Source of the DNA: Myxococcota bacterium
GTDB taxonomy: Bacteria; Myxococcota_A; SURF-8
Direction: 5' to 3'
Length of the DNA: 64,000 nucleotides
Assembly: GCA_963674735.2 (NCBI GenBank)
Contig: CAXXQS010000002.1
Span: 1,952,001 to 2,016,000, forward strand
How positions within the stretch are numbered: the stretch's first letter is position 1; each line of letters opens with the position of its first letter. The position numbers and the translations under genes were made by a program. A model generated the notes under the pieces. It saw only the letters and a program-made list of their open reading frames with translations. It made no database searches and was not told the origin of the DNA. This document shows positions 20,426 to 44,741 of this stretch, one piece after another.

Positions 20426-22576
20426 ATGGGACGCACACTAGCCGAATACAAGGCTGAAATTGCCGAGCGACGTGCGGAAATCCTGACTATTTTTCGCACC
20501 CATTACGGCAATCAGGATACCTCGCGCATCGAGAAGGCGATGGATTATGCGGAGCTTTTACACCGTGGGCAACTGCGGCGTTCGGGTGTTCCCTATATTT
20601 TCCATCCTTTGGCGGTTACCCGGCTGGTAGCTGAGGCGCAACTGGATGAGAATTGTCTGATTGCCGCGCTTTTACACGATACGATCGAAGATACCGTGGC
20701 TTCCAAGCAGGTGATTGCCGACAAATTCGGTCCCTACATCAGCGACATCGTCCATGCGCTGACCAAAATCCGCAGCTATTCCAGCGAGCGTGCCGAAGAA
20801 GACAAACGGCAAACCTATCAACGCATTCTCAAGGCGGCCAGCAAAGATGTGCGTCCGCTGCTGATTAAAATTTTCGACCGGCTCAACAACATGCGTGACA
20901 TGACGCACATGCCGGAAGGTCATCGTCAGCGTATTTCCCGTGAAACGCTCGATGTCTATGTTCCGCTTACCCGGCGACTTGGGATGCGCCGTGTCGAACG
21001 GGATCTTACCAGCTTGAGTTTGCGTTTTCTTTTCGCCGAGGCGTACGAGCGGATCGAACAGCGTATCGAGAAGGAAGTCAAGGAACGAGAAGACGAATTG
21101 TACGAGAGTGTCGATACGATCACGCGTTTGTGCCAGGAGCAGGGAATCGACGTGGAGATCGTGACCGCCTGGCCCACGGTCGCCGACTTCTACGATACCG
21201 AACTCGGCATGCAACCCCACGCCGATGTCGTCATTCACTACAACCTCATTATTAACAATATTCTTAATATTTACACTGCGTTGGGTGTTCTGCACTCCGC
21301 CTTTACCCCCGTGCCGAAGCAGGTGCGGGACATGATCGCCAGTCCGATGGCCAACGGTTATCGTGCACTCGAAACGAGGGCGGTTAATGGTGGTCGTATG
21401 TATCGATTATCAGTTATGACGGCGGAAATGTATGATGTCAACGATCATGGAATCATCCACAATTGGCGGGTCAATCAAAATCGGCTTAGTGGATACTATA
21501 CGGGATATATGAATTTATTGGGTGAGATACTAGAGGACGAAAACGTCCGCGTCGACGAGGTTCTACAGCAGTCGGATGTCGAGGGCGTCGCCGTGTTTTC
21601 CCCTCAAAAAGATTTATACATGCTGCCAAAAGGAGCCATTGCGCTCGACTTCGCTTATGCCGTTCATCGCGAAGTCGGTGCACACGCGAAAGCGGCCATC
21701 GTCAATGGCGTAGAACGATCGATCCTTCAACGTTTGCGCTCCGGCGACGTGATTCGGGTTGTCACGGATGAACAGGTGGTTCCCGACGAGAGCTGGTTGG
21801 AACACGTGGCCAGTTCCAAGGCGCGTTCGTCGATTAAAAACTGGCTTCGACGCCAGCTCGATCAGCGTGCGATGGAACTGGGTCGCGATATGTTTTCGGA
21901 AGAACTGGTCAAGTATGGCTTCGACCCGAAAATTGTTGTGGAGGGACATGATTTTTCACGGGTATTGAAAAACAGCGGACTCAAGCTGAATGAGTTGTAC
22001 CGCCGTGTCGGCTATCGGCAGATTCTGGCGGCGGACTTCATTGCCGAACACGATATCGTACCTAAAAAACGGATTGCGAGCCAGACCAACGCCGAACGTG
22101 CGTCGATCAAGGAAAAAATCTTTTCCAGCCTGCGAAGTGTCAAAGGACCGACTCTGAAGTTTTCCAAAAACGATGTTTTCATCAAATACGCTCACTGTTG
22201 TACGCCTATCTTCGGCGATAAAGTCGTCGGCGTGGTCAGTGCCGGCAAAGGAGTGACGGTCCACCGCTATAGTTGTCCCAATCTGAAAAACCTGGATAAA
22301 GGCCGCTTGGTGGAAGTGGAATGGGATAGTGCCGAGGAAAATCTTACTTCCGCATTGCTGAACCTGCATATCAAGGATAAACGCGGGGTCATGGCCAAAA
22401 TCCTGCTTGCAGTCAACAAATATGGGATCAATTTATCTGAATTCAATGCGTATACCGTTGGGCACGAGGCATTTATGAAGTTACGACTCGATGTTTCAAA
22501 CCAGCGTGAGCTTCTGCGCGTTGTCAACGAGATCCGAAAAATTGAGGCCGTGGATGCGATCACCCGTGAGGAGTGA
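20426..22576 (+). CDS. spoT: long RelA/SpoT homologue (HD hydrolase, degenerate synthetase, TGS, ZFD, ACT)
   Basis: GQLRRSGVPYIFHP, LLHDTIEDT, DRLNNMR, TGS (LPKGAIALDFAYAVH), CCTPIFGD...VHRYSC, C-terminal ACT. Confidence 0.9.
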   Translation: MGRTLAEYKAEIAERRAEILTIFRTHYGNQDTSRIEKAMDYAELLHRGQLRRSGVPYIFHPLAVTRLVAEAQLDENCLIAALLHDTIEDTVASKQVIADKFGPYISDIVHALTKIRSYSSERAEEDKRQTYQRILKAASKDVRPLLIKIFDRLNNMRDMTHMPEGHRQRISRETLDVYVPLTRRLGMRRVERDLTSLSLRFLFAEAYERIEQRIEKEVKEREDELYESVDTITRLCQEQGIDVEIVTAWPTVADFYDTELGMQPHADVVIHYNLIINNILNIYTALGVLHSAFTPVPKQVRDMIASPMANGYRALETRAVNGGRMYRLSVMTAEMYDVNDHGIIHNWRVNQNRLSGYYTGYMNLLGEILEDENVRVDEVLQQSDVEGVAVFSPQKDLYMLPKGAIALDFAYAVHREVGAHAKAAIVNGVERSILQRLRSGDVIRVVTDEQVVPDESWLEHVASSKARSSIKNWLRRQLDQRAMELGRDMFSEELVKYGFDPKIVVEGHDFSRVLKNSGLKLNELYRRVGYRQILAADFIAEHDIVPKKRIASQTNAERASIKEKIFSSLRSVKGPTLKFSKNDVFIKYAHCCTPIFGDKVVGVVSAGKGVTVHRYSCPNLKNLDKGRLVEVEWDSAEENLTSALLNLHIKDKRGVMAKILLAVNKYGINLSEFNAYTVGHEAFMKLRLDVSNQRELLRVVNEIRKIEAVDAITREE

Positions 22577-23875: not shown

Positions 23876-26278
23876 ATGGGTGAGGAATTCCAGCGGTGCG
23901 TGGTGATCGGAGCGGGCTGGATGGGCGCGAGTATCGCGGCCCTGGTAGCCAGTGCCGGAGTTCCGACGGATTTGCTCGACCGATTGCCGCCGGTGGAACC
24001 CGGCGATGACGAAGTGCAAAACGGCTTCAGCCGGTTTTCCGATGCCTGGCGCAACAGCCTCGCTATCGGAGCCTCGGAGAGAGCTCGTTCACGCGGAGCT
24101 TTTCTTGCTCCCGAAGCGGTGACGCGGGTGCGTACCGGGAACATCGCCGACCACCTGGAGTGGATACGGCAGGCCGATTGGGTGATCGAAGCCGTCCCCG
24201 AGGTGCTGGATGTCAAACGGGCCACCTACGAACGGATACTCCCGCACCTCCGGCCGGAAACGGTTGTCAGTTCAAATACTTCCGGTATTTTGGCTTCGCG
24301 TTTAGCCGAGGGACTTCCCGATGATTTCGCCAAGCGTTTCATGGTGGGACACTTCTTCAATCCGGTGCGCTATATGCGCCTACTTGAAATTGTTGCAAAT
24401 CCGCGCACCGAACGCCAGGCGGTGGAACGACTCAAAGATTTTGCCAGTAAACGGCTTGGAAAAGGGGTGATCGAATCCCGCGACAAGCCGAATTTCGTAG
24501 CCAATCGCATCGGACTTTTTTCGTTGTTGACGGCCATGCACCACGCCCATGAGATGGGGATCGGTGTGCGTGAAGCCGACCGCCTGACCGGTCATGCCTT
24601 GGGACGCGCCAGCTCGGCGACCTTTCGCACGGCCGATCTGATTGGCCTGGATGCGCTGTTGCTGGTTCTAGACAACTTACACGGTATGTTGGCGGGCGAT
24701 CCCTGGCGCGAGCGTTTTAACGCCCCGGCTTTTTTCCGTATTTTGGTTGAACGGGGAAACTGGGGCCAAAAAAGCGGTTCGGGTTTTTATCACTATTTCG
24801 AAGAGAGTCAACGCCCCGGAGATGAGACCTTCAACCTCGATAGTCTGACCTACAAACGCAACGAGACGCGCCGTTTCGCCACGCTGGATCGAGCGTTCGA
24901 ACAACCCAATCCAGGCGAGCGTATCCGAGCCTTGATTTCCGGTGACGACGAGGGCGCCCGATTTGCTTGGGCCGTGTTGCGCGATACTTTGGTGTATGCG
25001 GCGGCGTGTTTGGGGGAGATTACCGATCATCCCATCGCCATCGACCGCGCCATGCGTTGGGGCTACAATTGGGATCTCGGTCCCTTCGAGATCTGGAACT
25101 ATTTGGGATTGCAGGACGTTGCCGAACGTATCGAACGCGATGGGGTGGCCTTGCCTGAAACGGCCAAGCGTCTTCTGGATAGCGAGCAGTCCGGCTGGTA
25201 TTTCGAAGAGCGCGGCCGTCGTTTCGAATGGGATCCGAAAAGCGCCGAGCTCAAACTCATTCCACGCCCTTGTTCCGTGAGTTTGAATACCATGCGGCGC
25301 GAGCATGATGTCCTGCTGACGCAGGGCAATGCGGTTTTAGCCGATTTGGGTGACGGCGTCGCCTGTCTGAGTTTGGCTTCGCGTTATGATGAAGCGCCGA
25401 TCATCGATACACAATTGGTGGGGTTGATTCGTCGAATCCAGGATGAGTGCAACACCCGCAAATTCAAAGGGCTGGTCATTCTATGCGAGGCGGCCGATTT
25501 TCTGCTCGATCTGGATTTCGAAACCCTGCTGGTCCGCATGGCCGATCATGATTGGGATGCGATCGAACAGGAAGTGATCGATCGCCAGCAAGCAAGCCTG
25601 ATGTTGAAACGCATCGGGTTTCCCGTTGTGGGCGCCATCAGCGGCCGCGCCATCGGGGCCGGATGTGAAATCGCCTGCCATATCGGACGTCTGCAAGTTC
25701 ACGCGGAGGCCCAATTCGCCATCGGTAATCTGGCGATGGGACTCATTCCGTCTGGCGGCGGCACCAAGGAACTGTTGTATCGGCTGATGGACCGGGTACG
25801 TATGGACGGTCCCCACCCGCTTGCACGCGCTGCCTTCCAAACCGTTTTTCCCGGCAAGGTGATCAAAGGCGCTTTCGAAGCCCGCAGTAGCGGATTTCTG
25901 CGTCGCGGCGACCGTCTGACGATGGGAATCGACCGCTTGTTGCCGGATGCAAAAGCCATGGTGCTCGACTTGATCGAGAACGGGAACAGTCTGCCCTTGT
26001 CCGCTCCCTTCCACCTGCCCGGTCCCGGTGGAGTGGCGGCTTTACGACTGGAGTTGCAGCATATGCAGCGACAGGGGTTGTTGAGTCCGCACGATGTGAC
26101 GGTCGGGGAGAAGCTGGCGGAAGTGTTATGTGGGGGGGAAACCTCGCCGTTTGAAGAGGTCAGCGAGGCGCAGCTGCTCGACCTGGAGCGCAAGGCCTTT
26201 GTCGATCTGTGCAAAATGGAAAAGACCCAGCAGCGGATCGAGCATTGGGTGAAAACTCGCCGCGTTCTACGCAACTAA
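23876..26278 (+). CDS. fadN: 3-hydroxyacyl-CoA dehydrogenase / enoyl-CoA hydratase fusion (FadN-like)
   Basis: GAGWMG, EAVPE, SSNTS, HFFNPVRYM, FVANRIG, GYNWDLGPFE, C-terminal crotonase-like domain; ATG 23876 after GGAGG. Confidence 0.9.
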   Translation: MGEEFQRCVVIGAGWMGASIAALVASAGVPTDLLDRLPPVEPGDDEVQNGFSRFSDAWRNSLAIGASERARSRGAFLAPEAVTRVRTGNIADHLEWIRQADWVIEAVPEVLDVKRATYERILPHLRPETVVSSNTSGILASRLAEGLPDDFAKRFMVGHFFNPVRYMRLLEIVANPRTERQAVERLKDFASKRLGKGVIESRDKPNFVANRIGLFSLLTAMHHAHEMGIGVREADRLTGHALGRASSATFRTADLIGLDALLLVLDNLHGMLAGDPWRERFNAPAFFRILVERGNWGQKSGSGFYHYFEESQRPGDETFNLDSLTYKRNETRRFATLDRAFEQPNPGERIRALISGDDEGARFAWAVLRDTLVYAAACLGEITDHPIAIDRAMRWGYNWDLGPFEIWNYLGLQDVAERIERDGVALPETAKRLLDSEQSGWYFEERGRRFEWDPKSAELKLIPRPCSVSLNTMRREHDVLLTQGNAVLADLGDGVACLSLASRYDEAPIIDTQLVGLIRRIQDECNTRKFKGLVILCEAADFLLDLDFETLLVRMADHDWDAIEQEVIDRQQASLMLKRIGFPVVGAISGRAIGAGCEIACHIGRLQVHAEAQFAIGNLAMGLIPSGGGTKELLYRLMDRVRMDGPHPLARAAFQTVFPGKVIKGAFEARSSGFLRRGDRLTMGIDRLLPDAKAMVLDLIENGNSLPLSAPFHLPGPGGVAALRLELQHMQRQGLLSPHDVTVGEKLAEVLCGGETSPFEEVSEAQLLDLERKAFVDLCKMEKTQQRIEHWVKTRRVLRN

Positions 26279-26322
26279 GGGTTGTGGCGTTGCCGGGCAT
26301 GTACCGGGAAGTGCAGTCCTGT

Positions 26323-26910
26323 TCATGTCTCTCGAACCTTGGTTTTCTTGAACTTCATGCCCGTACATTTGGCTTTTCGGATCGCTTTGACAATGGGCTC
26401 GGCCAAAAACGTCGTACCGCAGCCGCGCGGTCGAATCACTCGACGATCACCCAGTTTCGACCGTTGCAACACTGGAGCGACAACGGATGATTTGCTGATC
26501 TTTCCATCCATGCCATAGCCGTAATCCGTCCATTCCTCGTCCAGCACGTCCGGTCGGTCGGGGATGTGCAGGGCGTAGTAGGTGTGAAGGATGCCGTCTT
26601 GGTCTACAACGATGTTTTCCAGCCATTCGTAGGCATCGCTCGGCGAGGCATTCTGATCGATGATGGATCTAAGAAGTGGCGAACATAATTCCCAGCCTAA
26701 ATCATTGACAAGATAGTCGGTAAGGATTCCATCACGTAGCTCGAAGATTACCGGTTTCCATTTGTCGTAATGCTTCCCTTCCTGTCTCAGTGTCGGATAA
26801 AGGCCCTGAGGTGTATATCCAACACCGAAGGACATGTCGGAACTGCGAAAAAGATTGTAGAATATTTTCTGAGCCATGTTATCTCCTAAGCTTTGCAACG
26901 ATTTATTCAT
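26323..26910 (-). CDS. Imm11/DUF1629-like immunity protein, array copy 7
   Basis: DYLVNDLGWELCS..., YYALH...DVLDEE, C-terminal AIRKAKCTGMKF; paralogue of six neighbours; alternative RBS-supported start at 26877. Confidence 0.78.
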   Translation of the reverse strand: MNKSLQSLGDNMAQKIFYNLFRSSDMSFGVGYTPQGLYPTLRQEGKHYDKWKPVIFELRDGILTDYLVNDLGWELCSPLLRSIIDQNASPSDAYEWLENIVVDQDGILHTYYALHIPDRPDVLDEEWTDYGYGMDGKISKSSVVAPVLQRSKLGDRRVIRPRGCGTTFLAEPIVKAIRKAKCTGMKFKKTKVRET

Positions 26911-26954
26911 ACCACTCGGATCGTATCATGCCCGGTTCAGCTGTAATATGGGAG

Positions 26955-27521
26955 TTACACTACACGCTCTATTTTGAATTTCATGCCCGTGCATTTGGCT
27001 TTCTTGATGGCTTTCACAATTGGTTCTGCAAGAAAAATTCCCGGAGAATGCCGAGCACGAACAACTCGGTAACCATCGATTTTATTTCGACTGAATATAG
27101 GCCAGATAACTCTTCGCTTATCAAATGTGCCATCTTGATTATGGCCATAACTGCCAGCAGCTCCCATTGCATCCTCATCCAACACGTCCGGTCGGTCGGG
27201 GATGTGTAGGGCGTAGTAGGTGTGACGGACGCCGTGTGGATCAATAACGATGTTTTCCAGCCATTCGTAGTTGTCTTTGGGCGAGGCGTGCTGATCGATG
27301 ATGGATTTCAGTCGCTCCGAACACAAGACCCAGCCTAAGTCGTTGACAAGGTAATCGGTAAGGATTCCATCACGTAGCTCGAAGGTTACTGGAACCCAAT
27401 TATCGAAAGACGTTTCTTCCCAACGTAGAGTCGGATAGAGACCATTTGGTGTATAACCGACTCCGAAGGCAAAATTGCCGGAGCGAAACAATGAGTAATA
27501 TTTCATCGGCGATTTATTCAT
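26955..27521 (-). CDS. Imm11/DUF1629-like immunity protein, array copy 6 (divergent C-half)
   Basis: same family motifs; start ATG 27521 after GGGAGA (ORF track extends it to 27545). Confidence 0.78.
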   Translation of the reverse strand: MNKSPMKYYSLFRSGNFAFGVGYTPNGLYPTLRWEETSFDNWVPVTFELRDGILTDYLVNDLGWVLCSERLKSIIDQHASPKDNYEWLENIVIDPHGVRHTYYALHIPDRPDVLDEDAMGAAGSYGHNQDGTFDKRRVIWPIFSRNKIDGYRVVRARHSPGIFLAEPIVKAIKKAKCTGMKFKIERVV

Positions 27522-27576
27522 AGCAAGATCTCCCGTCAATACCATTCACTGCGAACCATACCCGGTTCAGTGCTGT

Positions 27577-28164
27577 TCATGTCTCTCGAACCTTGGTTTT
27601 TTTGAACTTCATGCCCGTACACTTGGCCTTTCGGATAGCTTTGACCACTGACTCGTTTAAAAACACGATGCTGGAATCACGTGGCCGAAAAATCCCATGA
27701 TCGTTGAGCTTCGACCGTTGGAGAATCGGAGCGATAATGCAGGACTTGTCGATGGTTCCATCCGCATTGCGACCGTAATCCGTCCATTCCTCGTCTAGCA
27801 CATCCGGTGGATCGGGGATGTACAAGGCGTAGTAAGAGTGGTGAATACCGTCTTGGTCCACGACGATATTTTCCAGCCATTCGTAGGCATCGTTCGGCGA
27901 GGCATGTTGATCGATAATGGATCTAAGAAGCTGGGAGCACAATTCCCAGCCTAAGTCATTTGCAAGATAGTCGGTAAGAATTCCGCCGCGTAGCTCGAAG
28001 GTTACCGGTTTCCATTTATCGTAATGCTTCCCTTCTTGTTCCAGTGTCGGATAAAGGCCTTGAGGTGTATAACCAACGCCGAAGGACATGTCGGAACTGC
28101 GAAACAGTTTATAGAAAAGTTGTTGAGCCATGTCATCTCCTAAGCTTTGCAACGATTTATTCAT
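27577..28164 (-). CDS. Imm11/DUF1629-like immunity protein, array copy 5
   Basis: same family motifs; alternative start at 28131 after AGGAG. Confidence 0.78.
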   Translation of the reverse strand: MNKSLQSLGDDMAQQLFYKLFRSSDMSFGVGYTPQGLYPTLEQEGKHYDKWKPVTFELRGGILTDYLANDLGWELCSQLLRSIIDQHASPNDAYEWLENIVVDQDGIHHSYYALYIPDPPDVLDEEWTDYGRNADGTIDKSCIIAPILQRSKLNDHGIFRPRDSSIVFLNESVVKAIRKAKCTGMKFKKTKVRET

Positions 28165-28200
28165 ACCACTCGGATCGTACCATACCCGGTTCGATGCTGT

Positions 28201-28755
28201 TCATGTCTCCCGCACCGTGGTTTTCTTGAACTTCATGCCCGTACATTTGGCTTTTCGGATAGCTTTCACGATGGGTTCAGCAAAAGAGGTCGTATTGCAG
28301 CCCCGCGGTCGAATCAGCCGACGATCACCCAGTTTCGATCGTTGAAGCATCGGAGCGACAATGCAGGATTTGTCGATGGTTCCATCCGCATTGCGACCGT
28401 AATCCGTCCATTCCTCGTCCAGCACATCCGGTGGATCGGGGATGTGCAGGGCGTAGTAGGTGTGACGGATGCCATTTTGGTCCACGATAATGTTTTCCAG
28501 CCATTCGTAGTCGTCCTGGGGTGAAGTATGCTGATCGATAATGGATTTCAAAAGATTCGAACAAAGCTCCCAACCTAAGTCGTTGACAAGGTAGTCGGAA
28601 AGAATGCCATCTCGTAACTCGAAAGTTACCGGAATCCATTTATCGTAATGCTTTCCTTCCCAAACTAGTGTGGCGTCGATGTCCCTAGGTGTATAGCCGA
28701 CGCCGAAGGACATGTCGGAACTGCGAAAAACATCGTAGAATAGTAATTGTTTCAT
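28201..28755 (-). CDS. Imm11/DUF1629-like immunity protein, array copy 4
   Basis: 184 aa, protein identical to copy 3. Confidence 0.78.
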   Translation of the reverse strand: MKQLLFYDVFRSSDMSFGVGYTPRDIDATLVWEGKHYDKWIPVTFELRDGILSDYLVNDLGWELCSNLLKSIIDQHTSPQDDYEWLENIIVDQNGIRHTYYALHIPDPPDVLDEEWTDYGRNADGTIDKSCIVAPMLQRSKLGDRRLIRPRGCNTTSFAEPIVKAIRKAKCTGMKFKKTTVRET

Positions 28756-28805
28756 CCTTCCCCCTTAATACCACTCGGATCGTACCATACCCGGTTCGAT
28801 GCTGT

Positions 28806-29360
28806 TCATGTCTCCCGCACCGTGGTTTTCTTGAACTTCATGCCCGTACATTTGGCTTTTCGGATAGCTTTCACGATGGGTTCAGCAAAAGAGGTCGTAT
28901 TGCAGCCCCGCGGTCGAATCAGCCGACGATCACCCAGTTTCGATCGTTGAAGCATCGGAGCGACAATGCAGGATTTGTCGATGGTTCCATCCGCATTGCG
29001 ACCGTAATCCGTCCATTCCTCGTCCAGCACATCCGGTGGATCGGGGATGTGCAGGGCGTAGTAGGTGTGACGGATGCCATTTTGGTCCACGATAATGTTT
29101 TCCAGCCATTCGTAGTCGTCCTGGGGTGAAGTATGCTGATCGATAATGGATTTCAAAAGATTCGAACAAAGCTCCCAACCTAAGTCGTTGACAAGGTAGT
29201 CGGAAAGAATGCCATCTCGTAACTCGAAAGTTACCGGAATCCATTTATCGTAATGCTTTCCTTCCCAAACTAGTGTGGCGTCGATGTCCCTAGGTGTATA
29301 GCCGACGCCGAAGGACATGTCGGAACTGCGAAAAACATCGTAGAATAGTAATTGTTTCAT
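28806..29360 (-). CDS. Imm11/DUF1629-like immunity protein, array copy 3
   Basis: 184 aa, protein identical to copy 4. Confidence 0.78.
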   Translation of the reverse strand: MKQLLFYDVFRSSDMSFGVGYTPRDIDATLVWEGKHYDKWIPVTFELRDGILSDYLVNDLGWELCSNLLKSIIDQHTSPQDDYEWLENIIVDQNGIRHTYYALHIPDPPDVLDEEWTDYGRNADGTIDKSCIVAPMLQRSKLGDRRLIRPRGCNTTSFAEPIVKAIRKAKCTGMKFKKTTVRET

Positions 29361-29410
29361 CCTTCCCCCTTAATACCATTCGGAGCGAACCATGCCCGGT
29401 TCGATGTTGT

Positions 29411-29971
29411 TCATGTCTCCCGCACCGTGGTTTTCTTGAACTTCATGCCCGTACACTTGGCCTTTCGAATGGCTTTGACAATGGGGTCGGCCAAAAACGT
29501 CGTGCCGCAGCCGCGCGGTCGGATCACCCGACGATCACCCAGTTTCGATCGTTGAAGCATCGGAGCGACAATGCAGGATTTGTCGATGGTTCCATCTGCA
29601 TTGCGACCGTAATCCGTCCATTCCTCGTCCAGCACGTCCGGCCGGTCGGGGATGTGCAGGGCGTAGTATGTGTGACGGACACCGTGTGGATCAATAACGA
29701 TGTTTTCCAGCCATTCGTAGGCGTCGCTCGGTGAGGCGTTCTGATCGATGGTATTTTTTAGTCGTTCCGAGCATAGGTCCCATCCATACACGATGGCCTG
29801 ATAATCCGTGATTACTCCCACTCGTAAAATGAATTCCACGGGTTCCCACATGTTGTTCTGTTGTCTATCCAACAACATCCATTGCGGTGTTTTATTGATT
29901 ACCTCTGCCACTGGATGATTCAAGTCATCATCCATGAATAGCTTGTAGAAGCTAATAAAAGTATTTTTCAT
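29411..29971 (-). CDS. Imm11/DUF1629-like immunity protein, array copy 2 (divergent N-terminus)
   Basis: unique N-terminal ~65 aa joined to a C-half shared with the other copies; GGAGG RBS. Confidence 0.78.
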   Translation of the reverse strand: MKNTFISFYKLFMDDDLNHPVAEVINKTPQWMLLDRQQNNMWEPVEFILRVGVITDYQAIVYGWDLCSERLKNTIDQNASPSDAYEWLENIVIDPHGVRHTYYALHIPDRPDVLDEEWTDYGRNADGTIDKSCIVAPMLQRSKLGDRRVIRPRGCGTTFLADPIVKAIRKAKCTGMKFKKTTVRET

Positions 29972-30025
29972 ATTACCCCTCCTATGGATACCACTCGGAT
30001 CGTACCATGCCCGGTTCGACGCCGT

Positions 30026-30613
30026 TCATGTCTCTCGAACCTTGGTTTTCTTGAGCTTCATGCCCATGCATTTAGCTTTTCGAATGGCTTTGACAATGGG
30101 CTCGGCCAAAAACGTCGTACCGCAGCCGCGCGGTCGGATCAGCCGACGATCGCCCAGTTTCGATCGTTGCAACACTGGAGCGACAACGGATGATTTGCTG
30201 ATCTTTCCATCCATGCCATAGCCGTAATCCGTCCATTCCTCGTCCAGCACATCCGGTCTGTCGGGGATATGCAGGGCGTAGTAGGTGTGACGGATGCCGT
30301 CTTGGTCCACGACGACGTTTTCCAGCCATTCGTAGGCATCGCTCGGTGAGGCGTTCTGATCGATGATGGATCTAAGAAGTGGCGAACATAATTCCCAGCC
30401 TAAATCATTGACAAGATAGTCGGAAAGAATGCCATCACGTAGCTTGAAGGTTACCGGTTTCCATTCATCGTAATGCTTCCCTTCTTGTCTCAGTGTTGGA
30501 TAAAGGCCCTGAGGTGTATAACCAACGCCGAAGGACATATCAGAACTGCGAAACAGTTTATAGAAAAGTTGCTGAGCCATGTCATCTCCTAAGCTTTGCA
30601 ACGATTTATTCAT
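30026..30613 (-). CDS. Imm11/DUF1629-like immunity protein, array copy 1 (presumed cognate)
   Basis: directly downstream of the toxin, ATG overlapping the toxin end; alternative start at 30580 after AGGAG. Confidence 0.8.
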   Translation of the reverse strand: MNKSLQSLGDDMAQQLFYKLFRSSDMSFGVGYTPQGLYPTLRQEGKHYDEWKPVTFKLRDGILSDYLVNDLGWELCSPLLRSIIDQNASPSDAYEWLENVVVDQDGIRHTYYALHIPDRPDVLDEEWTDYGYGMDGKISKSSVVAPVLQRSKLGDRRLIRPRGCGTTFLAEPIVKAIRKAKCMGMKLKKTKVRET

Positions 30614-31592
30614 ACCATTCGGAGCGTATCATGCCCGGTTCATCCAGCACTTTTTCACGAACAAAACGGCCAAACAGATCCAGGAATTTATCAGCATCGG
30701 CACCGGCTTCACGTTGTGCTTCTTCCATTTTCTCCAATACAAATTTATGATAATCCTCCGCGTGCCGCCCGGTATGCGGGATTTCAACCTTGTTCCACGC
30801 ACCGTCGAGGTCGAGATCGTAAAAATCGGCGATCTTCTTGAACTCGGGTGTGTACTCCGAATGGTGGGTGTTGGATGCCAGGTGGTGCGTGTGGACTGGG
30901 AAAGACTTCAGCATGTCGCGGATGGCCGCGCGGCGTTCGGGCAGATCGTCCATGGCCTGTAGTGTCCGGCGGGCTTCGGCGACGCTCAGGAATTTCTTCC
31001 CGAATATGTAAACGACCGGACCGATCAGCAGGTCGGAAGGATCGGGAACACCCACCGCTTCAACGACTTCGGCGGCGGCGGCCAGGGCATCGGCGGCCTT
31101 TTGACCTGCCCGGTTCACGTCGGCGAGATAGGCTTGGCTGTCCGAGCCTTCGCCCGCCAGTGCTTGTTCGTGAGCCACCTTCCGTCGGATCTTCGCCTCC
31201 GCCTGATCCACGGGATCGCCGGTGAACCAGGATTTGACCCAGCCGCCCAGATTGTCCGCGTTCCAGAAATCCGATGGCGTTTCCGTTTCTTCATCCTCTC
31301 CGGTGAAGTGGAAGTCCATCTCGTCCATCCCTTCGTCGACCGGCGGTCTCGCGGCTACTTCCAATTTGCAGGCGCAATTGGGATGCAGGGGTGGGTGGAC
31401 GTCCCAATCCTGGGCGAGGCGTGTTTCTCCGTCGAGCGCCGCGCAGGCGTCGCAGGTCTTGTCGCCCGAGGTCACCCAGGTCAGGTATACCCGGTCGCCG
31501 TTATACCCGGCGACGGCAGCCAGGTGTCCGAACCGGCCCAGTTTCGCATAGGCCCGGTAGGTTTGGAGTCGTTCCGTTTCTATCTGCGCCAC
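30606..31592 (-). CDS. polymorphic toxin: MuF (phage minor head protein)-like N-terminus plus C-terminal AHH-type HNH/EndoVII nuclease
   Basis: WVTSGDKTCDACAALDG...PPLHPNCAC (MuF pattern); HTHHLASN...LDLDGAWNKVEIPHTGRHAEDYHKFV (Tox-AHH pattern); GTG start after GAGGAG; followed by immunity genes. Confidence 0.8.
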   Translation of the reverse strand: MAQIETERLQTYRAYAKLGRFGHLAAVAGYNGDRVYLTWVTSGDKTCDACAALDGETRLAQDWDVHPPLHPNCACKLEVAARPPVDEGMDEMDFHFTGEDEETETPSDFWNADNLGGWVKSWFTGDPVDQAEAKIRRKVAHEQALAGEGSDSQAYLADVNRAGQKAADALAAAAEVVEAVGVPDPSDLLIGPVVYIFGKKFLSVAEARRTLQAMDDLPERRAAIRDMLKSFPVHTHHLASNTHHSEYTPEFKKIADFYDLDLDGAWNKVEIPHTGRHAEDYHKFVLEKMEEAQREAGADADKFLDLFGRFVREKVLDEPGMIRSEWYE

Positions 31593-31714
31593 GATTGTCT
31601 CTCCTCACATGGATTCAAAGCACCGGTATCAGCATAGCGCATGCGGTGTAGAAATCAAGGAGCGAAAGAGTTCAAATAAGCGCATGAGGGAGCATGAAGG
31701 AGCGTGCAGGAGCG

Positions 31715-32539
31715 TCAGGGTGCATCGGGAGCGTCGGGGTCGTCTTCCAGATTCCACATGAATCGGCAGCGGCCCATCATGCAGGTTTCGATCGGTAAAC
31801 AATCGTCTTGATCCGAACATTGCGGTGGTGAGCACTCCTCGGCGATGCATAAAGCACCGATGGGGCAACTCGTGTCGTATTCACAACTCTGCTTGCGGCA
31901 AAGGGACTCGATGCAGGCGCTTTGGGGTGGGCAGTCGATGTTTGTTTCGCAGGGGAAGCTTTCACAGCCTGCCCGGTAACAAAGATAGCCGACCGGGCAA
32001 TCCGTTTCCGATTCGCATTCCGCGGGTGCACAGTGGAAGGATCGGCACGTTTCATCCTGTTCGCAGTTCAAGGTGTAATAGCAGTCGGCGGTGTCGCAGC
32101 GACTATTCAGGCAAATGCTTTCACTGTCGCAGTCGCTGTCGACCTCACATTCTCCTTTGATGCAGCGCTTGGCCAGGCAGACATCGGAAGACTGATAGTC
32201 GCAGACGTACCCCGTTGGACAGTCGCTGGTTTGGTAGCATTGAGTCAGCGAGACACTGCAGCGTCCGCTTTCGCAGATACTGTCCACGGCGCAATCGCAA
32301 TCGCTTAGGCAGTGCGGTTCCACGCAAGACCTTCCTTCGCAGATCAGATCCCCGCAGGCAGTATCGTTCAGGCAGTCGTCGGGGGCGTCGTTGCAGCGAC
32401 CGCCGGGGCCGCAGATCGTGTTTCCAGGACAATCGATATCGCGCGAACAGGTTTCTCCCAGGTCGTTTGTCCGGTGGGTGCAGGCGGAGAGTGAAAACAG
32501 GAACAGTGATAGAAGCAACAAATATCGGCTCATTGCCAT
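31715..32539 (-). CDS. cysteine-rich repeat lipoprotein
   Basis: lipobox LSAC, then about 9-10 C-x2-3-D-x-D-C-x4-5-C-x4-C units. Confidence 0.85.
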   Translation of the reverse strand: MAMSRYLLLLSLFLFSLSACTHRTNDLGETCSRDIDCPGNTICGPGGRCNDAPDDCLNDTACGDLICEGRSCVEPHCLSDCDCAVDSICESGRCSVSLTQCYQTSDCPTGYVCDYQSSDVCLAKRCIKGECEVDSDCDSESICLNSRCDTADCYYTLNCEQDETCRSFHCAPAECESETDCPVGYLCYRAGCESFPCETNIDCPPQSACIESLCRKQSCEYDTSCPIGALCIAEECSPPQCSDQDDCLPIETCMMGRCRFMWNLEDDPDAPDAP

Positions 32540-32542
32540 GCC

Positions 32543-35476
32543 TTAGAAAACATTGTCGAGGGAGAAATACAGCGACCGAATGCCGTCCTGATCGAGCCCG
32601 GCCTGGTAGCCCATGCGGAGTGTGATGGCCTGGAAATACCCCACCAGGATGTCCAGGCGGATTTCGCCGCCGATTCCCTTGCGAGTGTCGCTGATTTCGA
32701 AATCCTCCGCCCAGGGATAGCCTGCGTCGAAGAAGGGGGCGGCATGCAGACGGCGGAAGTAGATCGGCAGCGTCGCAACCCCGCGGTCGATATTCCAGAT
32801 TACGAAGCGGTATTCGGATTTGAACAGGAAGAATTTGTCTCCGGCGATGGAATAAGGGTCGTATCCACGGATGAAATCACCGTAAACGCGATTGTTGCGG
32901 ATCAGGTCGGAGACGAAGTCGCTTTCGGGAAGACCCCCGATGTAAAACAGGCGTCGGTCTTGATAGTCGGACAAGCCCATGCCGCCCGAAATCTTCATGG
33001 CCAGCGAATGGCCATCCACCCAGGGGTTGGCGATGTATTCCGCCCAGCCGCCCACGACGGTGATGTTGTTGAACTGCGAACCCAGCACTTCGGTTTCGGT
33101 GCGGACGTTGACGTACAGCGAACGGCCCGAGGCACTGCCGACGAAACCGGGAAATCCTTGGCGGTTGTTGTAGGACCAGCCGATGGAAAAGCCGCTGCCG
33201 AGTCCGGTGTCGGCAAAGGTGGGCGGATCTTCCAGCGGTTCATAGTCATAGCGGTTCAGCAAACGTGTGTACCGGAAGTTGGTTGAAAGTGACAGGGTGT
33301 GGCCGTAATGGTGGCTGTTCAAACCGCGCACCAAGCGGTTCGTGAAAGGGAAGGAAATCGAAGCCGATGCACCGGTACGCGATTCGTTCTGATCGATCAC
33401 CTCGCCGTTTTTAATGGCGGCAGCCTGAACGGTGTAGGAAGTATGAGTGGCGCGAAGGGAGAGGTTCGGCAGAAAACGCTTATAGCTGTAGCTGACACCG
33501 ATGGTGGGATCTCCGCTTTTCAGGCCGACATCGGCTTCCAGTTCCCAGTGATGATTCCCGGCAATGTCGTCGCCCCACATATGGATTCCCAACGTTGAGC
33601 CTGCGTGATCTTCACCGGAGGTCGGTTTCCACAGTTTTGGGTACAAAGAGGGGAAGGGCGAGTATTCCCGATCTTCAAAAGGAACTTCCGGCTCGTCGTA
33701 GGTGCGGCGGGGGCGTAATTCCGGAACGTCGGGTGCTGGAGGGGCACCCAGTTTTTCCAAATCGATCCAAGCCAGATCATAGCCGTTCCACTTGTAACTC
33801 GACACAATCAGCCGCTTGCCGTCGGGCGTAGCCAAGGGGGAGAAAACGCCTCCCAGAACATTGGTCAACTGCCGTGTTTGCTTCGAGACCGTGTCGTAGC
33901 TGTAGGCGTTGTAAATACCCGTGCGATCGGACGACCAGAAGAGTTGGCGACCGTCGAACGACCAGGTCGGGGACATATCCAGGGCGTTATCCTGAGTGAT
34001 GGGGATGATTTGTTGTGTGTCGAAATCGTAAAGATAGATATCTTTGAAGCCGTCTTGACGCCAGCCGGTGAAAGCCAGGTAACGGCCATCGGGTGACCAG
34101 GCAGGACTGAAAACCTGATCGAAATTTCCTTCGGGCAGCAGATCGATGGCGTCTTTGGAGTCGACGTCCAGAAGCATGAGCTTGGATTGTCCGGGACCGA
34201 AGCTGACGAAGGCCAGATGGCGACCATCGGGTGCGAAACTGGGATCGCGCGCCCGCAGGCCATCCGTGAGACGTTCGCTGGTTTTACGTTCGAGGTCGTG
34301 CAGGAAGAGGTCGTAGTAGTAATATTCCATGCGTGTATACGTGAGCTGGCCTGTCACCACGCGTCTTCCGTCCGGGGCGATGGTCGCTCCGCCGTCGTCG
34401 TCGGCTTCGATGACGATCTCATGTTCCATCGTGTCGAGGTCCAGCACCGCCCAGCCATGCCGATTGGGTCGGGCGTCGTCGTGGAAATACAGCATTTTAT
34501 CGCCGGTTGGAAAAAAACGCGCCGAATCGTGATCTTCGCCGGTGTCGGTGAGGGGATGCAATTCGGTTAGTCCCAGGGCTTTCAAACGCTCGGAATCGCG
34601 TCTGTAGCGGGCGATGGTGAGGTCTTTCCATTCCGCGTAGAGACGCAGATAGTCGTCATCGGTGATTCGTTTGAGAACCGTATTGAGGGAATAGGGAATC
34701 AGCCGTTGACCATACAGATAGCCGAGAGCGGCAAAGGTTTTTTGATCGTATTTATCGGCCAGATATTGCATGAACCTGGCCCCGTATAGATACCAGATAT
34801 TGCCGCGCGGCCAGCGGTCGGTGTTGGCCCCGATCTGATCGATTTCCAAGAAATGGTCTTGCAGGGAGTCCATGCGCAGATACATGTCGAACAAGGCCGA
34901 ACGCTGGCGCCCACCGGCGGTGAAAAAAGATTCGTGGAAAATCGCCATTCCCTCGGTGTACCAGCGCGGCATGTACTGATTGGGGTGGATCATTCCGCCG
35001 AAAATCATATTCACGGCGGCCGGGATGCCCGATTTGGTATCAAGCTGAATCACATGGGTGAATTCATGGGAAAAAAGAACGCGGTACCAGTCGTCATAAT
35101 CGTTGAGGACCGATTTGCGTCCGGGCGGTACGGCGTAAAGAACCATGTGGTTATAGGGGTAGACGTTGACCCAGCCATTGGGCGTATCCACATGGTCCAC
35201 AAGGGCGATTTCGGTTTTGAATTTAGGCTCGTATTCCAAAAGCGGCGTCATTTCGGAATAGATATGCTCCGCCATGCGAGCCAGTTGGCGGGCCATGTTT
35301 TCCAGCCCTTGGTGGTAGCTGATGCGGAAATGTTCGGTTTCCATCGTTCGCCAGTGGAGGTCATAGGGGTACGCCCCGAGCGGTTGTTCAAACAAACCCA
35401 GGGTGAGAAGCAGAAACATTAGAATGCCGAGAAACCACTGCCTCATCATCGCCTCATAATATAATCGTTTCATCAT
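32543..35476 (-). CDS. Omp85/BamA-TamA family outer membrane protein with N-terminal HExxH peptidase-like domain and TolB/PD40 beta-propeller
   Basis: signal peptide, HEFTH...WYTEG, repeated PxW/FSPDG units, IRGY Omp85 loop motif, C-terminal aromatic (FSLDNVF). Confidence 0.85.
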   Translation of the reverse strand: MMKRLYYEAMMRQWFLGILMFLLLTLGLFEQPLGAYPYDLHWRTMETEHFRISYHQGLENMARQLARMAEHIYSEMTPLLEYEPKFKTEIALVDHVDTPNGWVNVYPYNHMVLYAVPPGRKSVLNDYDDWYRVLFSHEFTHVIQLDTKSGIPAAVNMIFGGMIHPNQYMPRWYTEGMAIFHESFFTAGGRQRSALFDMYLRMDSLQDHFLEIDQIGANTDRWPRGNIWYLYGARFMQYLADKYDQKTFAALGYLYGQRLIPYSLNTVLKRITDDDYLRLYAEWKDLTIARYRRDSERLKALGLTELHPLTDTGEDHDSARFFPTGDKMLYFHDDARPNRHGWAVLDLDTMEHEIVIEADDDGGATIAPDGRRVVTGQLTYTRMEYYYYDLFLHDLERKTSERLTDGLRARDPSFAPDGRHLAFVSFGPGQSKLMLLDVDSKDAIDLLPEGNFDQVFSPAWSPDGRYLAFTGWRQDGFKDIYLYDFDTQQIIPITQDNALDMSPTWSFDGRQLFWSSDRTGIYNAYSYDTVSKQTRQLTNVLGGVFSPLATPDGKRLIVSSYKWNGYDLAWIDLEKLGAPPAPDVPELRPRRTYDEPEVPFEDREYSPFPSLYPKLWKPTSGEDHAGSTLGIHMWGDDIAGNHHWELEADVGLKSGDPTIGVSYSYKRFLPNLSLRATHTSYTVQAAAIKNGEVIDQNESRTGASASISFPFTNRLVRGLNSHHYGHTLSLSTNFRYTRLLNRYDYEPLEDPPTFADTGLGSGFSIGWSYNNRQGFPGFVGSASGRSLYVNVRTETEVLGSQFNNITVVGGWAEYIANPWVDGHSLAMKISGGMGLSDYQDRRLFYIGGLPESDFVSDLIRNNRVYGDFIRGYDPYSIAGDKFFLFKSEYRFVIWNIDRGVATLPIYFRRLHAAPFFDAGYPWAEDFEISDTRKGIGGEIRLDILVGYFQAITLRMGYQAGLDQDGIRSLYFSLDNVF

Positions 35477-40283: not shown

Positions 40284-41388
40284 GGTTGTTCCCCTGCTTG
40301 GCGGTTAAAACATCGGTATTGGAAAGACGGTCTTCGGCTTCGATCAGTGTCAGCATGGCGCGTCCGAAGTTCCACTTTCCGAAAAAGCGCTCATACTGTT
40401 CCGATTCCAGGTAGGCGCGCATGGCATCGAGGTAGTCGTTGTAGCGGGCTTTGGTCATACCGTTCAGGTATCGATGTAGATCGGCGTAATCCTCGAAAGC
40501 GCGAACATCCACGAAGGTTTCGGCCGGGAAGTAGTCGGTTGGATTGACCGGTCCCCAATAGACCGGCACGGTTTCCCCGCGGAAGCAGTGCAGAATTTTT
40601 TCGGAAATATATCCGTAAACACCGATGCAATTTTCGAAACATAGATTGAATTTGTAGTGCGCCAGAACGGCCATCTTGTTTTCCACCTCACCCACGTAAG
40701 AATGGAAAAAGACCGGTTTCTTATGAGGCCAGCGTTGGACGACGCGCGCCGGATCGTTCAGTCCGCGACCGTAAACATGGAACTCGTCGGATGCCTGTTC
40801 GAAAAATTTGGAAGCTCGAAAACGTTCCGAATAAAGCTCCCGGTAGCTGTCATTGTTGGCATAGCGGTAGCTGTTCATCATCATCATGTAGCGCTTTTGT
40901 TCAAAGGGAATCGGCTTCCAGCCGCTCATGTCGGGGTATGCTTTTCCTTCGGAGATGCGGAAGAACCGGCGGTTGTCGATCAGGTCGTCCTGGTGGGTGA
41001 GGATGCGCCGAAACATCCCCGTCAGCTTCATCAATTCATGGCGTGTATTGGTTGAGTGAATCACCGGAGGCTCGTAGGCCACGAAATAGCAGGGGATATC
41101 CAGTTCGCGGCATTTTTTGTAGAGATCCGGATTGGGGCCGTAGAGTCCGAAAAACACCGCTTTATCCACGCTTCGCAGATCGCTGTATTGATCGTAGGTG
41201 TGTACGTTGACACCGTGGTCGTTCAGATACTGCTTCATGTTCAGCCAGACATGCAGCAGTTTGTCGTGATTCAGGACGCTGGTTTCGTCGAAAATGGCGT
41301 CGCCGTTGTAAATCTCTCCATCCAGAAACAGAGCGAGATTCAGTGTTTTCTCGTTCGAAGCATCATTTTTCGGTTTCATCGCGGCCAC
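40276..41388 (-). CDS. glycosyltransferase family 10 (fucosyltransferase-like)
   Basis: YKFNLCFEN...GYISEKI...VPVYWG GT10 motif; EPP upstream. Confidence 0.85.
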
Positions 41389-44300: not shown

Positions 44301-44741
44301 ATCGATGCCGCAGCGTTTACCCGACAATTCTTCCAGAAGCGGTTTGAATGAACCGTCGCAACTGCCGGGCATGACGGTTGAAACGACATCGACGATATGG
44401 AAACGATCCTTTTCGGCTAAAAGCGGTCCGATGGCGCGCAGCACGGTTTCCACCATGGCATTGGTGAATGCACCCGAATCGGTCGAGGGGGTGGGGACGA
44501 TGATCAGTGTCGCCTCGCTGTTGGCAATGGCATCGCCGAGATCGTCGGTTACGCGCAGGTGATCCCAGGCTTGTTCCAGCAGGTCGGTCAATCCGGTTTC
44601 GTCGATCGGGTTCTCACGGCGGGACAGTGCTTCGAGAATGGCGGGGTTACTATCGACTCCGATTACCTTGACCCCGGCGGAGGCAAAGCAGGCCGCCGTG
44701 CAGAGCCCCAGTTTTCCGAGCCCGATTACCGAAATATCCAT
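41376..44741 (-). CDS. nucleotide-sugar dehydrogenase fused to TPR-like region and FkbM-family methyltransferase
   Basis: GLGKLG, VPTPS, YNPEF, GFGGPCFPRD in the first ~430 aa; helical TPR-like segment; VDVGANLG...LLKIDVEGHE at the C-terminus. Confidence 0.88.
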   Translation of the reverse strand: MDISVIGLGKLGLCTAACFASAGVKVIGVDSNPAILEALSRRENPIDETGLTDLLEQAWDHLRVTDDLGDAIANSEATLIIVPTPSTDSGAFTNAMVETVLRAIGPLLAEKDRFHIVDVVSTVMPGSCDGSFKPLLEELSGKRCGIDFGLAYNPEFIALGSVVHNFFNPDMVLIGGSDSQTGNALRSLYARMVKNKPHYAIMSLVNAEITKLSLNCYVTTKISFANELAAICEKVPGADVDAVSEAIGADTRVGSKYIKGGLGFGGPCFPRDNIAFQRFVENLGMQANLAPHVVAINQRVVARLEESVTQTLPAGSRVALFGLSYKPSTHIVEASQSLQLAVRLADAGYEVVLHDPKALKAAENELGKQVRYESDPYTAAEGASALILLTSWPQFIELDWPRLADCMAAPRLLVDSWRWFKNDPPANFRYVALGLGPTQNEQRVNEEDPPIAWRIVYSPTIQSLQAVLAAPAIRALTDAGKDEPIEVLFPFPIDTRYTDPETGLTLRGFRNRLELEEYLVHTKDESRTVWIGSIREGLILEPNAFDALAMALNTPDAQNIPFAALNLIPNKYASDDPPPFACWLRQDAFGKHAGAWLAAWLDGAEPPAIGDKILTSPGFKAKIESTALELELSLLSGKKPDINAVKNKMQDAPRLLRWYVAEQCASGDIADINHLPYTLLAPIADALTDPRLHFPWIDRMQRFLAESDWQALLSEASSAPPAGLEGTAAMLVGIANLNLNKPLEAMQALNIAMGIIPQDSALRFTVGMALMNLQRFADASGFFDMLFKEDPRDFESLWRLGLARLQVDDFTSAAAAAGRLMTSADIEPRHLDLALHAHEVAGLSSELQKYSRYIEMYPPLPADFSEKEMAIAGYVIRNKKSDAWVVDVGANLGDVSHAFLDWGHRVLSIEPDETLIPTLKQKTAAFGERAAYVHCACSDQNGKGSLCIGNERGFNTLDSDTRNVLKFRYSDNHGSQSVRLRRLDDLLDRKGIQQVSLLKIDVEGHELKVLEGLRDDWYPRIDYILFEYHIRLGKKMAEVLHHLFERGFIHGICFQHPGNDLLGLHLESFKAQDKQLNLNIDASGYGNIMVSKNPIFPFDPAWLDPGGPPIRPDDLDGRWPR

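Follow-up and report, generated by a model that had tools for sequence, protein, structure and literature searches.

Organization of the toxin locus

We analyzed a 64-kb stretch of DNA (hereafter, the window) from the genome of a Myxococcota bacterium (G000; 5.26 Mb in 3 contigs, 94% complete), together with relatives from the same uncultured class, which carry the other G-numbers used below (10 genomes in all, G000 included). On the minus strand, positions 30606..31592 of the window hold a gene for a predicted toxin of 328 amino acids (aa), as defined by the list of open reading frames (ORFs) and by Pfam matches, in which a small domain related to the phage head protein MuF (hereafter, mini-MuF) is followed by an acidic and helical middle region and an AHH nuclease domain. 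A Shine-Dalgarno-like GAGGAG (31601..31606) lies 8 nt before the GTG start at position 31592, and the reading frame is open for 332 codons in all, 4 of which are upstream of the GTG; together, these observations indicate that the short N-terminus of the toxin is not an annotation artefact.

The mini-MuF domain occupies residues 1–80 (31353..31592), as delimited by Pfam, hhalign, AlphaFold2 (AF2) and BFVD comparisons. The acidic linker that follows (residues 81–130; 31203..31352) was recognized from its composition, with 14 D/E versus 2 K/R in residues 80–130, and from its low confidence in the full-length AF2 model; this model, built from a 4-row alignment, was poor as a whole (pLDDT 48) and was used for the N-terminal domain only. 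The AHH nuclease domain (residues 230–303; 30684..30905) was matched by PF14412 with an E-value of 5.9e-10 (39.6 bits versus the Pfam cut-off of 22.3), and its motif residues, placed by eye with no family alignment, were T235-H236-H237, N267, H273, H277 and Y281. The motif given for the Tox-AHH family in a part of Zhang et al. (2012, PMC3482391) is [AG]HH, N, H, H, Y; in other words, the motif of this toxin starts with T (THH) where that of the family has A or G. Judging by hydropathy only, no segment resembling a signal peptide was present in the first 45 aa (maximum 15-residue Kyte-Doolittle mean, 0.66). The first-pass annotation of this DNA had described an acidic linker, an AHH-like C-terminus and the lack of a signal peptide, all of which held up in these analyses.

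Directly downstream of the toxin gene, seven tandem paralogous genes of 184–196 aa belonging to the Imm11 family extend over positions 26323–30613 of the minus strand. The first (195 aa; 30026..30613), whose ATG and the stop codon of the toxin overlap by 8 nt, is the presumed cognate immunity gene; its match to PF07791 (E-value 0.0042) was below the cut-off. It is followed by paralogue 2 (186 aa; 29411..29971; E-value 6e-7, 29.4 bits versus 22.1), by paralogue 3 (184 aa; 28806..29360), recognized by comparison with the other paralogues, and by paralogue 4 (184 aa; 28201..28755), a recent duplicate that encodes a protein identical to that of paralogue 3. Paralogues 3 and 4 form a 605-nt tandem unit that is 100% identical over the stretches compared. 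The array continues with paralogue 5 (195 aa; 27577..28164; 35.1 bits at C2:1979592-1979990, corresponding to positions 27592-27990 of the window), paralogue 6 (196 aa; 26955..27545; E-value 1.1e-7, 31.8 bits) and paralogue 7 (195 aa; 26323..26910; 24.7 bits), the last of which is 93% identical to gene 1. PF07791 thus exceeded 22.1 bits in 4 out of 7 genes, the other three (two of them identical) being below this value, and the paralogues were 63–93% identical to the first copy. No Imm11 gene was found in the class (10 genomes) except beside AHH loci, and a part of Zhang et al. (2012, PMC3482391) lists Imm11 as an immunity family for Tox-AHH and mentions homogeneous polyimmunity loci. The seven-gene array is the strongest evidence for a working toxin–immunity system, and, given such family relationships, we consider it very probable that the locus is a working polymorphic toxin–immunity system.

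PF04233 (Phage_Mu_F) and AHH each gave one match across G000, both in the toxin gene, which is therefore single-copy. The GC content was 0.64 in the N-terminal part of the toxin gene and 0.54 in the C-terminal part, compared with 0.56 in the genome and 0.49 in the Imm11 array. Word-index searches for homologues with residues 1–100 and 95–328 returned the toxin itself as the sole match, and a promoter and terminator scan of positions 26000–32800 yielded no more sites than did shuffled sequence. Of the 50 ORFs in the window that reach 80 aa, we further scanned 46 with Pfam and found no phage genes among them, in agreement with the earlier statement that portal, terminase and capsid genes are missing from the 64 kb.

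The N-terminal domain corresponds to the end of phage MuF

The pattern W/GD/CxxC/LDG/PPLHPNCxC that the first-pass annotation had reported in the first ~80 residues was present exactly as described, from W39 to C75 (W39, G44-D45, C47, C50, L53-D54-G55, P67-P68-L69-H70-P71-N72-C73 and C75). PF04233 aligned with residues 5–77, covering profile positions 32–111 of 112, with an E-value of 5.3e-5 and 24.4 bits, below its cut-off of 29.6, and TIGR01641 (SPP1 gp7, NCBIfam) also matched below its own cut-off (E-value 1.9e-4). A HMMER (phmmer) search of 1.84 billion representative proteins with residues 1–100 returned 51 matches at E ≤ 1e-3, and Pfam was run on 49 of these, all but the query and a fragment of 48 aa. 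PF04233 was detected in 31 of the 49 proteins, mostly at the extreme C-terminus of proteins of ~150–480 aa, and four others were repeat proteins, apparently spurious. We then compared a query profile of eight N-terminally placed versions of the domain with a template profile of twenty canonical MuF proteins using hhalign, which gave a probability of 99.2% (E-value 3.5e-19) over 53 columns (31–83 versus 193–247). Matches of the domain in PHROGs were all of MuF type (7/7) and belonged to the head-and-packaging category.

The AF2 model of the isolated domain, based on a 41-row alignment, was compact and confident (pLDDT 92, pTM 0.80) and consisted of two helices followed by a three-stranded sheet bearing Cys/His knuckles; from the invariant Cys and His columns, C47, C50, H70, C73 and C75 are likely to be Zn ligands. 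In a Foldseek search of BFVD, the top 50 matches were mostly annotated as minor-capsid, head-morphogenesis or portal proteins, including portal–MuF fusions, and about one-third had no name (probabilities, 0.92–1.00; TM-score on the query, ~0.5). No PDB sequence matched residues 1–90, Foldseek against PDB returned nothing at E ≤ 0.001, and the best Z in the wide VIA-align comparison was 3.3; no solved structure resembling the MuF core was found. The best of 80 viral-contig loci (L007) encoded an ordinary MuF protein of 313 aa behind a 477-aa ORF, and the match to mini-MuF spanned the last ~75 residues of that protein. The language-model look-alikes of the domain in the Atlas were clusters of proteins of 78–105 aa, of whose members 46–76% carried PF04233.

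These results support the earlier description of the N-terminus as MuF-like, on the evidence of hhalign, PHROGs and BFVD, although PF04233 itself fell below its cut-off. Since the match is restricted to the C-terminal end of canonical MuF, the alignments indicate that mini-MuF is the C-terminal third of phage MuF (its last ~55–80 residues) and nothing more.

Relatives of the toxin and their loci

The whole 80-residue N-terminus was shared with just four other proteins, namely P0002, P0003, P0004 and a protein of G002. In P0002 (399 aa), a long acidic linker leads to a C-terminus containing HEALH, P0003 (227 aa) and P0004 (232 aa; the G007 version) carry Tlde1 domains, and the G002 protein (358 aa) has an AHH end and is followed by Imm11. 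The G002 protein and the toxin were 31% identical over their full length (E-value 8e-42), and their Imm11 proteins could not be aligned by BLASTP. The N-terminus of P0003 was close to that of the G002 protein, and the toxin ends of the two differed. P0028 also combines a GH108 lysozyme with a version of the N-terminal core that is more distant. A constant N-terminus combined with differing ends (AHH, Tlde1 or HEALH-containing) is the classic pattern of a trafficking head with swappable toxins and is typical of polymorphic toxins.

The family was very small. Full-length matches to the N-terminus were found in 3 of the 10 genomes of the class (G000, G007 and G002), and among 401 sampled genomes of the phylum the same three were the only ones to reach E ≤ 1e-9. 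The database clusters of the family were all singletons or pairs, and the relatives from metagenome-assembled genomes were labelled only as 'Deltaproteobacteria' or 'uncultured Myxococcales'.

In G007 (L004, G007:C309, 2335-3490), the Tlde1 member and a downstream 169-aa ORF lie between tatA-tatC and pilB-pilT-pilC; this ORF had no family match and is presumed to encode immunity. The AHH member of G002 adjoins a serine recombinase, DUF2924, an MNT/HepT pair and a DUF4143 ATPase. G002 has another mini-MuF-AHH copy (L103, G002:C3:183200-203199, ~9500-11600), which is broken by a frameshift or a TGA stop; it is accompanied by a separate 118-aa AHH fragment and an rve transposase, and its Imm11 gene is intact and thus an orphan immunity gene. 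No head module was found at the readable family loci of G000, G007 and G002, and the possibility that all homologues lie in intact prophages, which had been raised against the first-pass reading, is contradicted by these loci, which are outside prophages.

Canonical MuF proteins do occur in the class, in a class-specific prophage family with a TerL-portal-MuF arrangement that was present in three copies in G005, two in G004, four in G002 and one in G008. The MuF proteins of this family were 287–317 aa long (PF04233, E-value 2.9e-20), and the copies at loci L105–L109 (G005, G004 and G002) were 66–86% identical to one another; at L105 they are followed by a polyvalent-protein-like protein of 1166 aa with a D12 adenine methyltransferase domain. 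The family was absent from G000, where tblastn searches with its TerL, portal and MuF proteins matched the toxin core only (E-value 0.008). A complex prediction combining mini-MuF with the portal of this prophage family scored 0.00 against a mark of 0.32, a result to which we attach no weight either way.

A conserved head-tail cluster lies elsewhere in the genome

Profiles PF05133, PF04860, PF06074 (for which the control was silent), PF03237, PF03354 and PF05065, which cover three families of portals, two of terminases and the HK97 capsid, were all negative across G000. A provisional conclusion from these markers, that G000 has no head genes, was ruled out by a Terminase_3 match (PF04466; C2:1110152-1110559) for TerL and by a PHROG match for the capsid; the Pfam models had missed divergent proteins. 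These matches belong to a one-directional head-tail cluster of 17 kb at G000:C2:1094003-1111337 (L119:3504 to L120:2838), ~870 kb from the toxin gene. The cluster comprises, in order, a 176-aa ORF, TerL (phrog_2, E-value 1.3e-34), a 483-aa ORF (C2:1108031-1109482) in the position of a portal gene, a short stretch with a weak scaffold match, the major head protein (phrog_212, E-value 5.5e-66), about eight small ORFs, a minor tail protein, a virion or tail-fibre-like protein of 1119 aa and four more ORFs. It holds no MuF gene, and no integrase or replication gene was detected among the 26 ORFs scanned in and around it. Its flanks are cellular (an acyltransferase, DUF3881 and a sigma-54 activator), the acyltransferase flank being shared with G005.

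The 483-aa protein had no match in Pfam or PHROGs, and a profile search of PDB sequences returned matches at chance level only (E-value 0.38 and worse). All 30 of its named Atlas look-alikes were clusters bearing SPP1_portal (score 0.98), which is a lead and not an alignment, and SPP1_portal was carried by 11–32% of the members of the three best of these clusters. From its place in the gene order and these look-alikes, the 483-aa ORF probably encodes a portal of the SPP1 type.

The cluster was collinear and single-copy in G005, G006, G008 and G002, with major capsid proteins 70–82% identical; for comparison, the core PD40 protein was 49–62% identical across the same genomes. The portal-like gene was detectable in 8 of the 10 genomes. 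Five of these have it intact, in G001 it is distant, and in G003 and G004 stop codons break its frame; searches of G009 and of G007 (79% complete) did not find it. In both toxin carriers with complete enough genomes, G000 and G002, it was intact. From this distribution, the cluster looks like an old, largely vertically inherited head-tail element, either similar to gene transfer agents (GTAs) or derived from a defective prophage.

We also searched for other machines that could deliver the toxin. TssC (PF05943) and a phage-type sheath had no match in G000, and VgrG/gpD (PF05954) and VirB4 gave none across all 10 genomes of the class; the components by which a type VI secretion system (T6SS) effector is assigned, TssC and VgrG, were thus both missing from the searches of G000. 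The single FHIPEP gene lies in a flagellar flhA-flhF-flhG-fliA cluster, and this neighbourhood indicates that it belongs to the flagellum and not to an injectisome. The first-pass annotation had pointed to prophage, GTA or extracellular contractile injection system loci elsewhere in the genome as possible carriers; a MuF-less head-tail cluster that looks GTA-like was indeed found, and neither a sheath nor the prophage family of the relatives was.

Proposed mechanism and alternative explanations

Taken together, the comparisons above indicate that the MuF part can be reduced to a putatively Zn-binding core of ~80 residues and moved onto chromosomal toxin genes far from head modules, which points to the piece of MuF that is likely to be enough for capsid targeting; in other words, a small tag. 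Judging from the domain families present, the AHH C-terminus would be a metal-dependent DNase of the HNH/EndoVII fold that is toxic in the cytoplasm, and the adjacent, translationally coupled Imm11 protein would neutralize it in the producer, with the six further paralogues probably guarding against variant AHH toxins of relatives. The mini-MuF domain, corresponding to the putatively Zn-binding C-terminal core of MuF (SPP1 gp7 type), may serve as a portable head-loading tag that docks the toxin on the portal or the interior of a phage-type procapsid encoded in trans. The toxin would then leave the producer inside particles released by lysis and enter a neighbour when the particle ejects its contents, and release of this kind would explain the lack of a secretion signal. 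A candidate vehicle is the conserved, MuF-less 17-kb head-tail cluster with its probable SPP1-type portal; a second might be incoming phages whose heads are of the MuF type; the relatives commonly carry such phages as prophages.

We tentatively prefer this loading of the toxin into phage-type particles in trans, at somewhat less than an even chance, because of the known role of MuF, the behaviour of the domain as a trafficking head, the presence of a head cluster without MuF and the failure to find injection machines; its binding, packaging and delivery steps are hypothetical. Cargoes acting on the cell wall (Tlde1, and GH108 in P0028) would also fit ejection through the envelope. According to part of PMC6316719, SPP1 gp7 reaches the procapsid interior through strong binding to the portal, and part of PMC5576092 proposes that toxins fused to gp7-like proteins are delivered at infection. 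The more specific version, in which the ~80-residue core is a self-sufficient tag and the chromosomal toxins ride a domesticated, GTA-like, MuF-less particle with an SPP1-type portal, is rather doubtful.

Several observations weigh against particle loading. Portal binding by mini-MuF and packaging of the toxin are conjectural, the toxin retains just the final third of canonical MuF, and we found no statement that locates portal binding within MuF. As for the head-tail cluster, it is distant from the toxin gene, is intact in the toxin-free G005, G006 and G008, is decaying in G003 and G004 and was not found in the toxin carrier G007 (79% complete); the proposed link between toxin and cluster is circumstantial. 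The assignment of the portal comes from gene order and language-model look-alikes, Pfam, PHROGs and the PDB profile having given nothing. A toxin ejected from a particle must still get to the cytoplasm to cut DNA, and since every intercellular route would call for an immunity array, the array does not favour particles among them.

The alternative that fares best, possible but on the unlikely side, is a real polymorphic toxin that uses no phage-type particle and is set free by lysis, in vesicles or through an unrecognized exporter, with mini-MuF serving, for example, for receptor binding or translocation in the manner of colicins or S-type pyocins, or as a tag recognized by the exporter. Nuclease bacteriocins (colicin E-type and S-type pyocins) have no signal peptide, a C-terminal DNase of the HNH superfamily and an immunity gene immediately downstream. 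The layout found here, with a small N-terminal domain, a linker, a C-terminal nuclease and downstream immunity, is similar, and particle-free release would also suit the lack of head genes near any of the three readable loci, the toxin family of G007 in a genome with no detected head-tail cluster, and the Tlde1 relatives, which act in the periplasm and need to enter no further. Against this, neither a lysis gene nor a dedicated exporter is conserved beside the three loci, capsid targeting is the only known role of the MuF family, and the machines that standard markers would reveal (TssC, VgrG, sheath and VirB4) were not found. Unlike nuclease bacteriocins, moreover, the toxin has no recognizable receptor-binding or translocation domains and no lysis gene, and its N-terminus is the core of a phage head protein.

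It appears improbable that the toxin is a 'poison pill' of the host against phages, in which mini-MuF competes with the MuF of an infecting phage for the portal so that AHH in the progeny heads ruins their DNA or the next infection. The relatives carry one to four TerL-portal-MuF prophages and G000, which holds CRISPR arrays, has none, which fits such a defence, and the Atlas look-alikes include stand-alone MuF cores. However, the diversification of the seven immunity genes and the exchange of toxin ends, with Tlde1 and its action on the cell wall among them, are predicted by warfare between bacteria and not by defence, none of the four proteins submitted to PADLOC matched a defence-system model, and G002 has the toxin together with four such prophages.

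A slightly poorer prospect is a purely intracellular toxin-antitoxin or addiction module that resides on a mobile island and is never exported. The toxin–Imm11 island comes after a conserved pair of genes, for a PD40-repeat protein and a Cys-rich lipoprotein, and in G006 the same pair is followed by unrelated genes, the island being absent at the corresponding site; such a mobile island would be in keeping with the low GC content of the immunity array and with the serine recombinase, transposase and other toxin-antitoxin genes beside the G002 copies. Tlde1 acts on peptidoglycan, however, and the Tlde1 relatives would be useless as cytoplasmic addiction toxins; a conserved, well-folded N-terminal domain would also be without a role. 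Polyimmunity arrays and C-terminal swapping are, moreover, given as hallmarks of exported polymorphic toxins in a part of PMC3482391. Finally, a decayed remnant of a prophage MuF toxin with a functionless N-terminal stub is very improbable: incomplete coverage of PF04233 below its cut-off and the broken second copy of G002 would fit decay, but five proteins start within a few residues of one another and conserve the whole 80-residue domain, the toxin gene starts behind a good ribosome-binding site with no frame upstream, the domain is predicted by AF2 to fold confidently on its own, and no phage genes flank any copy.

If loading in trans is correct, polymorphic toxins would be linked with GTA-like particles, and a domesticated phage cluster would gain a function. 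If the particle is the GTA-like one, it would be a lysis-released device that delivers toxins for kin discrimination, and the first known case of a GTA-type element with a toxin as cargo; no GTA is known to carry one. If neither is true, toxins without a signal would be exported by a route that is invisible to standard markers.

Comparison with known systems

Like MuF polymorphic toxins, the protein combines an N-terminal module derived from MuF, homologous to the MuF superfamily (PF04233, PF06152, MuF3 and MuF4), with a variable C-terminal toxin that is swapped between relatives and with downstream immunity, which was AHH with Imm11 both here and in G002 and the 169-aa ORF in G007. A part of Jamet et al. 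(2017, PMC5576092) places 96% of the muf genes of bacteria in prophages or their remnants and describes MuF toxins as 'exclusively' encoded by temperate phages, and the characterized MuF toxins Apk2 and Bxa are, in the relevant part of PMC11699363, prophage-encoded with N-termini of ~320 aa (residues 1–322 as the N-terminal query for Bxa). In those systems the MuF domain is whole and portal and terminase genes are its neighbours in prophages, whereas here only the last part is kept, the PF04233 threshold is missed and the gene lies in core chromosome, far from head genes. From these features, the system appears to work like a MuF polymorphic toxin and departs from two defining features of such toxins, in that its MuF domain is incomplete and its gene lies outside any prophage head module. 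In a literature search that did not cover the supplementary tables of Jamet et al. (2017), we came across no account of a MuF toxin that is truncated and chromosomal.

The same autonomous C-terminal MuF core occurs in stand-alone proteins of ~80–105 aa, the look-alikes in the Atlas; these are single-domain proteins, whereas here the core is joined to a toxin and immunity genes accompany it. With the Tox-AHH/Imm11 systems the locus shares an AHH nuclease and Imm11 in a homogeneous polyimmunity locus. It differs from the described Tox-AHH proteins in its THH motif and in its head: type II, V, VI and VII secretion systems (T2SS, T5SS, T6SS and T7SS) and TcdB/TcaC heads are the routes named for AHH toxins in a part of Zhang et al. 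(2012, PMC3482391), MuF not being among the routes given there.

The head-tail cluster resembles GTAs such as RcGTA in that its head and tail genes, ~17 kb in all, point the same way and are single-copy and collinear across the class; it is known here from its genes alone and is decaying in two genomes.

Other features of the genome and the window

CRISPR-type repeat arrays were located at G000:C1:520980-538243 and C1:1753037-1753379. Three of the arrays have a common repeat (at least 20, 13 and 6 copies, at a spacing of 68–78 nt), and a fourth has another. Comparison of the array regions with 1.19 Mb of sampled loci gave no match of at least 22 nt, the target being too small for this to mean much.

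Upstream of the toxin gene, positions 31715-32539 (minus strand) encode a protein of 274 aa with six Cys-rich DUF7107 repeats and a lipoprotein-like N-terminus, directly after a PD40-repeat protein of 977 aa (32543-35476, minus strand). Both are kept in G006 (45% and 61% identity for the DUF7107 and PD40 proteins, respectively), and the PD40 protein was found in all 10 genomes of the class.

Otherwise the window consists of core chromosome, with a dcw cell-division cluster and genes for RelA/SpoT, fatty-acid oxidation, the envelope and polysaccharides. The RelA/SpoT homologue (20426-22576, plus strand) has a strong HD hydrolase domain and a weak, partial match to the synthetase domain (PF04607 profile positions 32–108 of 113, 33.5 bits). 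The polysaccharide cluster includes two radical-SAM genes and an ORF of 1121 aa (41376-44741, minus strand) in which a complete UDP-glucose/GDP-mannose dehydrogenase (three domains, residues 1–420) is joined to a C-terminal FkbM-type methyltransferase.

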